Shown here: one piece after another, positions 6,906 to 7,156 of the stretch
Numbering within the stretch: the stretch's first letter is position 1
Layout: the number at the start of each line of letters is the position of its first letter
Source: a virus
IMG/VR virus record: IMGVR_UViG_3300022226_000002
Span: 14,934 to 78,933 of that record
Direction: 5' to 3' (one strand)
DNA length: 64,000 bases
The notes under the pieces: model-generated
Databases searched by the model: none
What the model was told of the DNA's origin: nothing
The model's input: the letters and a program-made list of their open reading frames with translations, nothing else
Translations under genes and position numbers: made by a program

Positions 6906-7025
6906 GACAACTGCCCTTTCGGTAACACAACATTCCTCGTCACTTGACAGGTAGGTATTCGGTAACACGAGATGCATCGTCATTTGGCGGCAGGAAAGAA
7001 ACCGTAAACATCGGAGCTCTCGCCA
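6906..7025 (-). ncRNA. TIGR-like array block 1 (units 1-3)
   Basis: CGA[GAGCTCCGA]TGTTTACGG[TTTCTTTCC]TG; TGACGA[TGCATCTCG]TGTTACCGA[ATACCTACC]TGTC; TGACGA[GGAATGTTG]TGTTACCGA[AAGGGCAGT]TGTC. Units 2 and 3 are 40 nt apart. Confidence 0.85.
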
Positions 7026-7156
7026 CCAAAAAAAACCGCCGAATCACCATGCGTTGGCTCCGGGAAAGAGGCGCACAGCAAAACGGCGGCTATGTATCTT
7101 TGAGCTTTCCCGGAGCCTCCAACGATGAATCTATCAGACTTGCGGTGCGGGGTCAA
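7026..7156 (-). promoter_or_regulatory. Sigma70-type promoter and attenuator-like leader of the TIGR-Tas-like operon
   Basis: TTGACC (7156-7151), 17 nt, TAGATT (7133-7128). Leader GCTCCGGGAAAG is complementary to CTTTCCCGGAGC inside a CCGCCG/CGGCGG stem followed by T8. Confidence 0.7.

Follow-up and report, generated by a model that had tools for sequence, protein, structure and literature searches.

A stem-loop TIGR-TasA operon of a phage in which the first guide partly matches the operon's own leader: possible autoregulation

Results

Organization of the operon

The analysed DNA originates from an IMG/VR virus record of 78,933 bases, a 79-kb phage genome which is complete according to CheckV. 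The window, by which the whole analysed stretch of 64 kb is meant, covers bases 14934-78933 of this record. A stem-loop TIGR-TasA operon is located on the minus strand of the window at 7156-4861, where it adjoins the large terminase gene (2911-4815) and sits just upstream of it. The order of the operon is the following: predicted promoter, leader, tigRNA units 1-3, the gene of a 175-aa protein, units 4-6, tas with internal units, and downstream units. The positions of the features are presented in Table 1. The predicted promoter is the sole promoter-like site within 6700-7500, and the transcription is expected to start near 7121. The gene just upstream of the leader (7160-7459, minus strand) encodes a 99-aa zinc-ribbon protein with a CxxC...CxxC pattern; its match with phrog_374, which is annotated as an HNH endonuclease, had an E-value of 2e-13 and was partial, covering the profile positions 191-259 only.

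Table 1. Features of the TIGR-TasA operon and its leader, positions in the window.
Feature	Position	Strand	Description
Predicted sigma-70 promoter	7128..7156	-	TTGACC (7156-7151), 17-nt spacer, TG-extended TAGATT (7133-7128)
Leader	7121-7028, ~95 nt	-	Between the expected transcription start and unit 1
5' arm of the leader hairpin, GGCTCCGGGAAAG	7105..7117	-	~+4 to +17 of the transcript; 12 bases identical to the composite target of unit 1
3' arm of the leader hairpin, CTTTCCCGGAGCC	7056..7068	-	13 nt of the composite target of unit 1 matched on the plus strand, 7057-7069
Alternative terminator (predicted)	7028..7091	-	Long interrupted stem 7091-7034 into the U8 tract 7035-7028; constrained folding and 237-nt fold
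tigRNA unit 1	6984..7029	-	Closing stem GGTGGC/GCCGCC, box C GA, two spacers, divergent loop repeat, box D TG
tigRNA units 2 and 3 (block 1)	6901..6986	-	End just before the ribosome-binding site of the 175-aa gene
Ribosome-binding site GGAGGA of the 175-aa gene	6899-6894	-	Strong
175-aa partner gene	6361..6888	-	Adjoins tas in related loci too
tigRNA units 4-6 (block 2)	6236..6367	-	Between the partner gene and tas
tasA-like effector gene, 414 aa	4984..6228	-	Coiled coil, Nop-type RNA-binding domain and zinc-ribbon insert (model)
tigRNA units 7-18	4861..6197	-	7-14 in the tas CDS; 15 and 16 at the tas 3' end/stop codon; 17 and 18 downstream

Effector and partner proteins

Altogether 54 homologues of the 414-aa protein were found. 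Its AlphaFold model, built on 37 homologues, had a pLDDT of 79 and a pTM of 0.70 and shows, besides an N-terminus which is likely disordered, coiled-coil helices, a Nop domain and a CxxC...CxxC zinc ribbon. In the Foldseek search of the model against the PDB, the ranks 1-10 were all occupied by TasH or TasR chains with a probability of 1.00, and the next match had a probability of 0.16. With the sequence, Pfam gave just a weak DnaJ-type zinc-finger match and no match to a Nop domain, and no match was obtained in the PDB sequence search. An HNH or RuvC nuclease domain was found neither by Pfam nor by PHROG, and none is recognisable in the model. As no nuclease domain is detectable, the effector is called TasA-like, and the model indicates that it is a nuclease-less Tas of this type. 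Nuclease-less TasA proteins bind DNA and, given a matching guide, reversibly repress transcription in E. coli reporter assays (bioRxiv 10.64898/2026.09.09.750476).

The low-confidence and likely disordered segments of the model correspond to the regions that encode tigRNA units. Within the tas coding sequence, 9-10 units were observed (5633-6197 and 4960-5045, minus strand), which coincide with the low-confidence residues 1-60 and 139-190 and with the stop codon. The variable acidic insertions in the alignment of Tas homologues are due to these embedded units. tigRNA units inside tas are known from other stem-loop systems (Xu et al. 2026, bioRxiv 10.64898/2026.09.09.750476).

The 175-aa protein is helical, is encoded between array blocks and gave no match with Pfam or PHROG. 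By tblastn, it was found with 91% identity in locus L001 and with 28% identity in L003, and its gene keeps the same position beside tas in L163 and L164. Judged from these comparisons, the protein accompanies this TasA clade as a conserved partner.

tigRNA units of the array

The array of the window is composed of 18 dual-spacer units of the form GA-N9-TG....CGA-N9-TG, all of which are on the tas strand. For the alignment, 68 units were collected from four loci: the window, L001 (70% Tas identity), L163 (46%) and L164 (38%). None of them deviates in GA (box C), TG (box D) or the CG of the loop repeat. The closing stem covaries, as seven of its eight pairs change on both sides, and 77.6% of the cells are paired in comparison with 54.5% in shuffles and 33-44% with the partners slid. 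The covariance model made of the 68 units recovers the units. In the window, the closing stems are short, 4-6 bp, giving the units a dual-repeat-like look. On account of the 18 units and the effector fold matching TasH and TasR, the locus is a genuine TIGR-Tas operon with a stem-loop architecture.

The spacer A of unit 1, GAGCTCCGA, is located at 7019-7011, the loop repeat, TGTTTACGG, at 7010-7002, and the spacer B, TTTCTTTCC, at 7001-6993 of the minus strand. The divergence of this loop repeat, pointed out in the earlier note, was confirmed: the consensus of the window is TG(A/T)T(A/G)CCGA and the loop of unit 1 ends with CGG, not with CGA. With 12.4 bits, unit 1 belongs to the three units of the array of 18 that score lowest with the covariance model, and it may be a decaying unit. 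The loop variants of unit 1, i.e. A at the sixth position of the loop repeat and the CGG end, are present in about one tenth of the family units.

Unit 12 (5732-5777, minus strand) is made up of the spacer A of one L001 unit and the spacer B of the next one (L001 1176-1260), which looks like a deletion or recombination between loop repeats by which a new guide would have arisen from two half-guides. The 17-mers of units 8 and 14 (6110-6155 and 5633-5678, minus strand), shifted by 2 nt relative to each other, together cover one CG-rich sequence of 19 nt. They do so with a centre of 1 or 2 nt, and the tiling fails with the 18-mer made with the units' own ninth bases. No match to this 19-nt sequence was found in the phage genome. 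The kilobase-scale region at 50937-52441, with nested 12-, 24- and 84-nt tandem periodicity, gives several weak plus-strand false positives to the tigRNA covariance model and is probably a gene of a repetitive structural protein.

The match between unit 1 and the leader

The composite 17-mer of unit 1 was made by joining the positions 1-8 of spacer A with the reverse complement of spacer B, the ninth base of A being dropped. The 12-nt sequence GCTCCGGGAAAG of this composite occurs exactly twice in the 64-kb window, at 7057-7068 on the plus strand and at 7105-7116 on the minus strand. The former copy extends to 13 nt (7057-7069) and the inverted copy remains at 12 nt, so both matches claimed in the earlier note are there as described. 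The note had also placed the inverted copy about 12 nt downstream of the -10 box; the position just past the TAGATT box (7133-7128) held, and the spacing was corrected to 11 nt.

Within the 139 nt of 7022-7160, searched on both strands, the longest run of the unit 1 17-mer is 13. The corresponding runs of the other 17 units were 4-7, those of 306 decoys made by combining the A spacer of one unit with the B spacer of another were at most 9, and those of 72 composites with a wrong geometry at most 7. None of the 20,000 composition-preserving shuffles of the 17-mer reached a run of 13 in the leader. The match is non-random and specific to unit 1.

In total, 13 of the 17 positions are matched, and the four mismatches all fall on the outer two positions of each spacer, which is true of 5 of 2380 arrangements. 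No unit has a better contiguous self-match than unit 1 in the whole 79-kb genome. The total itself is ordinary, as 12-14 matched positions of 17 are common genome-wide and most units find 13-14 somewhere; the match of unit 1 is exceptional because of its contiguity and its place, not because of the number of matched positions. Unit 2 has a 12-nt run at 61310-61326. The other 17 guides gave no self-targets above chance in the 79-kb genome, and the full 17-mer of unit 1 had no match within three mismatches.

Target geometry

In the solved complexes of TaTasR and PlTasA, nine base pairs are formed by each spacer and the target is a continuous 18-bp sequence (9+9). The products of TasR were reported to have 3' overhangs (PMC12045711). 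The order of A followed by the reverse complement of B should be the correct target geometry, since it is the sole order which yields such overhangs. In the 18-bp register, the leader pairs with spacer B in seven of nine positions and with spacer A in two of nine, and the contiguous run falls to 7. A canonical 18-nt target of unit 1 in the leader was rejected for this reason.

The ninth bases of the two spacers, A9 and B9, pair with each other in 15 of the 18 units of the window and in 53 of the 68 units of the four loci. According to the base composition 31 +/- 4 pairs are expected, and the observed value was not reached in any of 100,000 permutations. The paired fraction of A9:B9, 0.78 with Watson-Crick and G-U pairs counted, is the highest among the 81 A_i:B_j position pairs, the next being 0.66. 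The pairing rule is real. Unit 1 breaks it, having A opposite C. As many as 22 of the 53 pairs are G-U, and therefore an RNA-RNA pair fits at least as well as a DNA base pair shared by the two spacers. The pattern makes a 17-bp target with a shared central base pair plausible, and this clade may use either an RNA-RNA pair or a shared central base pair at A9:B9. Single mismatches at the edges are those best tolerated by TasR, and the seed positions are matched in the pairing of unit 1 with the leader. No activity of TasR was detected on RNA substrates.

Folding of the leader

The earlier note described the matched copies as the pairing elements of an attenuator-like leader, and the predicted folds agree with it: each copy forms one arm of a perfect hairpin of 13 bp (7117-7105 with 7068-7056) in an antiterminator/terminator-type fold. 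When the leader RNA from about 7121 to the U8 tract was folded freely, this hairpin was obtained at -35.3 kcal/mol. When either arm was blocked in constrained folding, the stem 7091-7034 was formed instead at -29.7 or -28.6 kcal/mol. The latter stem runs straight into UUUUUUUU, the U8 tract at 7035-7028 which abuts unit 1, and is also present in the fold of 237 nt. A simple terminator scan misses it due to the loop limit of 8 nt. The stability of the leader folds does not differ significantly from that of shuffled sequence (z = -1.3 to -1.8).

By its anatomy, the leader is a predicted antiterminator/terminator switch with mutually exclusive folds. Read-through should be the default, because the 3' arm of the hairpin is transcribed before the 3' strand of the terminator. 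According to this model, the expression of the array, the partner gene and tasA would be lost jointly if something held one of the hairpin arms. The complementarity between unit 1 and the arms on the transcribed strand amounts to six bases for spacer A with the 3' arm and likewise to six for spacer B with the 5' arm. The Rfam search of the leader gave no known RNA family, just far-sub-threshold miRNA-hairpin noise, and neither a leader peptide nor a known riboswitch was matched in it.

Related loci

Close relatives were sought with the Tas, 175-aa and 99-aa proteins in viral, metagenome and genome contigs. The close loci were L001 and L002/L041 only, with 70% Tas identity, and their sequences end before the leader. 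The tblastn search of GenBank phages gave no match. The loose unit-pattern search of viral contigs resulted mostly in chance matches; L121, extended to L163, is a real related locus. L163 and L164 share the plan of array, partner gene, array, tas and array, and 13 textbook stem-loop units were recognised in L164. In L163 (23 units) and L164 (17 units), no match to a leader hairpin was found, and no self-match was above 11 nt or beyond chance. By comparison of these loci, the self-match between a unit and the leader is not a family-wide feature, and the circuit, if it exists, is therefore lineage-specific. The distant Tas relatives L164-L189 (26-38% identity) were found in genomes and MAGs of Dehalococcoidia, many Alphaproteobacteria, Thermoguttaceae, Acidobacteriota, Myxococcota and others, where they presumably reside in prophages.

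Discussion

The reading of the match that we prefer is autoregulation: unit 1 would be a self-directed guide which exerts guide-dependent negative feedback on its own operon, either by a roadblock on DNA or by attenuation on RNA. As judged from the sequence, the probability of this reading is roughly 0.45, and a historical footprint is its serious rival. The two spacers of unit 1 would read opposite strands in tandem with the central base pair shared, and the target would occur twice, in inverted orientation, within the first 65 nt of the operon transcript. As TasA and tigRNA1 accumulate, the complex would bind its own leader. On DNA, the complex at about +3 to +19 and +50 to +66 would act as a roadblock for RNA polymerase. 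If the nascent RNA is the target, the 3' arm would be held by spacer A and the 5' arm by spacer B, by which the formation of the 13-bp antiterminator hairpin would be prevented, and the U8 terminator would stop the transcription ahead of the array, the partner gene and tasA. The proposal presupposes that tigRNA1 is made and loaded, that the 13/17 match is enough for binding, and that binding lowers the expression.

Autoregulation is favoured because the match is beyond chance, follows the A + reverse complement of B geometry and the A9:B9 rule, and has its mismatches at the edges only. It is also favoured because the Tas is a nuclease-less one of the repressor class and the sites lie past the sole predicted promoter and are the arms of the predicted terminator switch. 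Several findings count against it. The self-match occurs in one genome and is lacking in L163 and L164; the 9+9 register gives just 7/9 and 2/9; unit 1 is weak and breaks the pairing rule; the total of 13/17 is ordinary; and TasR is inactive on RNA. Moreover, there is no obvious need for a partial match in a nuclease-less repressor. The proposal of a partly matched regulatory guide in the earlier note is thus upheld as to the operon, the non-random match and the order of the spacers, and it is weakened by the 17-bp geometry, which departs from the solved 18-bp one, and by the poor quality of unit 1.

According to the historical explanation, which is less probable and still quite possible, unit 1 and the leader share sequence through local copying or the exchange of half-guides, or the spacers were once taken from the leader, and there is no guide-dependent regulation. 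Unit 1 would then be a degenerate promoter-proximal unit, and the hairpin would act by itself as a terminator, an antiterminator or a 5' stabiliser. The atypical character of unit 1, with its CGG loop end, unpaired A9:B9 and 12.4 bits, suits such an origin, and so does the lack of an analogous match in L163 and L164. Half-guide recombination occurs in the lineage, as seen from unit 12 of the window in comparison with L001. The perfect inverted repeat also puts an A-like hexamer (5' arm) and a B-like heptamer (3' arm) on the guide strand in the guide order. Since the site is a perfect inverted repeat, a target and a copy cannot be separated by sequence alone. The similarity runs slightly past the spacers (TCTTTCC.G..GCCAA; GAG(A)GCTCCG), but the best local alignment of the leader with unit 1, TCTTTCC.G..GCCAA, was reached by 7.4% of shuffles, and other units scored the same. 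The tigRNA covariance model found no unit in the leader at E <= 10. The view that the leader hairpin represents a decayed unit 0 or has arisen by duplication of unit 1 was rejected on the basis of the non-significant alignment and the missing covariance-model match, and it is kept only within the historical explanation. A plain duplication would have resulted in A and B on one strand with the loop between them, not in A abutting the reverse complement of B in the register predicted by A9:B9. Neither is random decay expected to place all four mismatches at the outer ends (5/2380).

An effect of the RNA in cis only, in which the spacers of unit 1 pair with the leader arms in the primary transcript and influence its folding, processing or stability without Tas, is considered unlikely. 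The complementarities do exist on the transcribed strand (up to 8 bp between spacer B with its edge and the 5' arm, 6 bp between spacer A and the 3' arm), the 5' arm pairs far downstream instead in the 237-nt fold while the terminator forms, and flanking sequence was reported to help the processing of stem-loop tigRNAs. However, the 13-bp hairpin, at -35.3 kcal/mol, far exceeds such pairing in stability and is the first to be transcribed, unit 1 comes after the U8 tract and hence has no influence in cis on the termination decision, and the folds do not exceed the stability of shuffled ones (z = -1.3 to -1.8). A chance resemblance, inflated by the free choice of the composite geometry, is the least probable of the explanations and is hardly to be expected. 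The 8+9 join was indeed chosen, the canonical 9+9 join giving a run of just 7; matches of 12-14/17 are common genome-wide, unit 2 having the 12-nt run at 61310-61326; and short spacers are known to yield many false target matches. Against this stand the 0/20,000 shuffles, 0/306 decoys and 0/72 wrong-geometry composites that reached a run of 13 in the leader. Even if about 100 alternative choices are allowed, the expected number is about 0.002, and the match, at a distance of less than 36 nt from the guide, falls on both arms.

A more specific version of the autoregulation reading would have the TasA-tigRNA1 complex recognise the nascent 13-bp RNA hairpin in the manner of double-stranded DNA, with one spacer per arm, flipping the antiterminator to the terminator. 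We regard this version as improbable; if it is true, the operon would have an RNA-guided transcription attenuator, and the hairpin would be the first natural target known for any TIGR-Tas system and would speak for the 8+1+8 geometry.

The operon resembles the stem-loop TIGR-TasA systems PlTasA, BlTasA and MbTasA (Faure et al. 2025, PMC12045711; Xu et al. 2026, bioRxiv 10.64898/2026.09.09.750476; Guan et al. 2026, bioRxiv 10.64898/2026.08.11.744272). Here as there, the Tas is encoded by a phage, lacks a nuclease and combines a coiled coil with a Nop domain; the dual-spacer units contain box C (CGA) and box D (TG) and have closing stems that covary; and the arrays are placed on both sides of the tas coding sequence as well as within it. 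The operon is set apart from these systems by the conserved 175-aa partner gene together with the zinc-ribbon insert of Tas, and, unlike in the known systems, its first guide partly matches its own leader. In contrast to the solved 9+9 complexes, the A9:B9 pairing suggests an 8+1+8 recognition here. In the searchable literature, no natural target or self-directed guide of any TIGR system was reported, and no paper combined tigRNA with autoregulation. According to the source papers on TIGR-Tas, the short spacers and the metagenomic context blocked the identification of targets.

Two other kinds of known regulatory systems are relevant here. The autoregulatory guides of CRISPR-Cas, i.e. the long-form tracrRNA of type II-A (tracr-L) and the CreR-type RNAs, carry a degenerate repeat and lie at the array edge; their complementarity to the effector operon's promoter or leader is partial, and the effector itself is the repressor. 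Unit 1 may be comparable to these, having a degenerate repeat at the array edge; its match with the leader of its own operon is 13 contiguous positions of 17 in the 17-bp overlap geometry, against 7/9 plus 2/9 in the 18-bp geometry of the solved complexes. Unlike in CRISPR-Cas, the effector belongs to another family, the guide reads opposite strands with its two spacers of 9 nt, a partial match would have no nuclease to restrain, and the target is duplicated as a hairpin which is predicted to be an RNA switch as well. With transcription attenuators the leader shares a GC-rich stem running into U8, a mutually exclusive upstream hairpin and the location between the promoter and the first gene product, whereas the effector proposed to shift the balance differs from those of known attenuators in being an RNA-guided complex encoded by the same operon.

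Unit 1 and its leader could also serve to distinguish between the two target geometries considered for the clade, 17 bp with a shared centre and 18 bp. If the match is a footprint of copying, it bears on how TIGR arrays gain and reshuffle their spacers. If the guide is indeed aimed at its own leader, it would be the first natural target of a TIGR-Tas system and a natural example of tuning by a partial match, and a known regulatory principle would have been newly found in TIGR-Tas. Autoregulation, if true, would provide a directly testable function for the nuclease-less TasA class.
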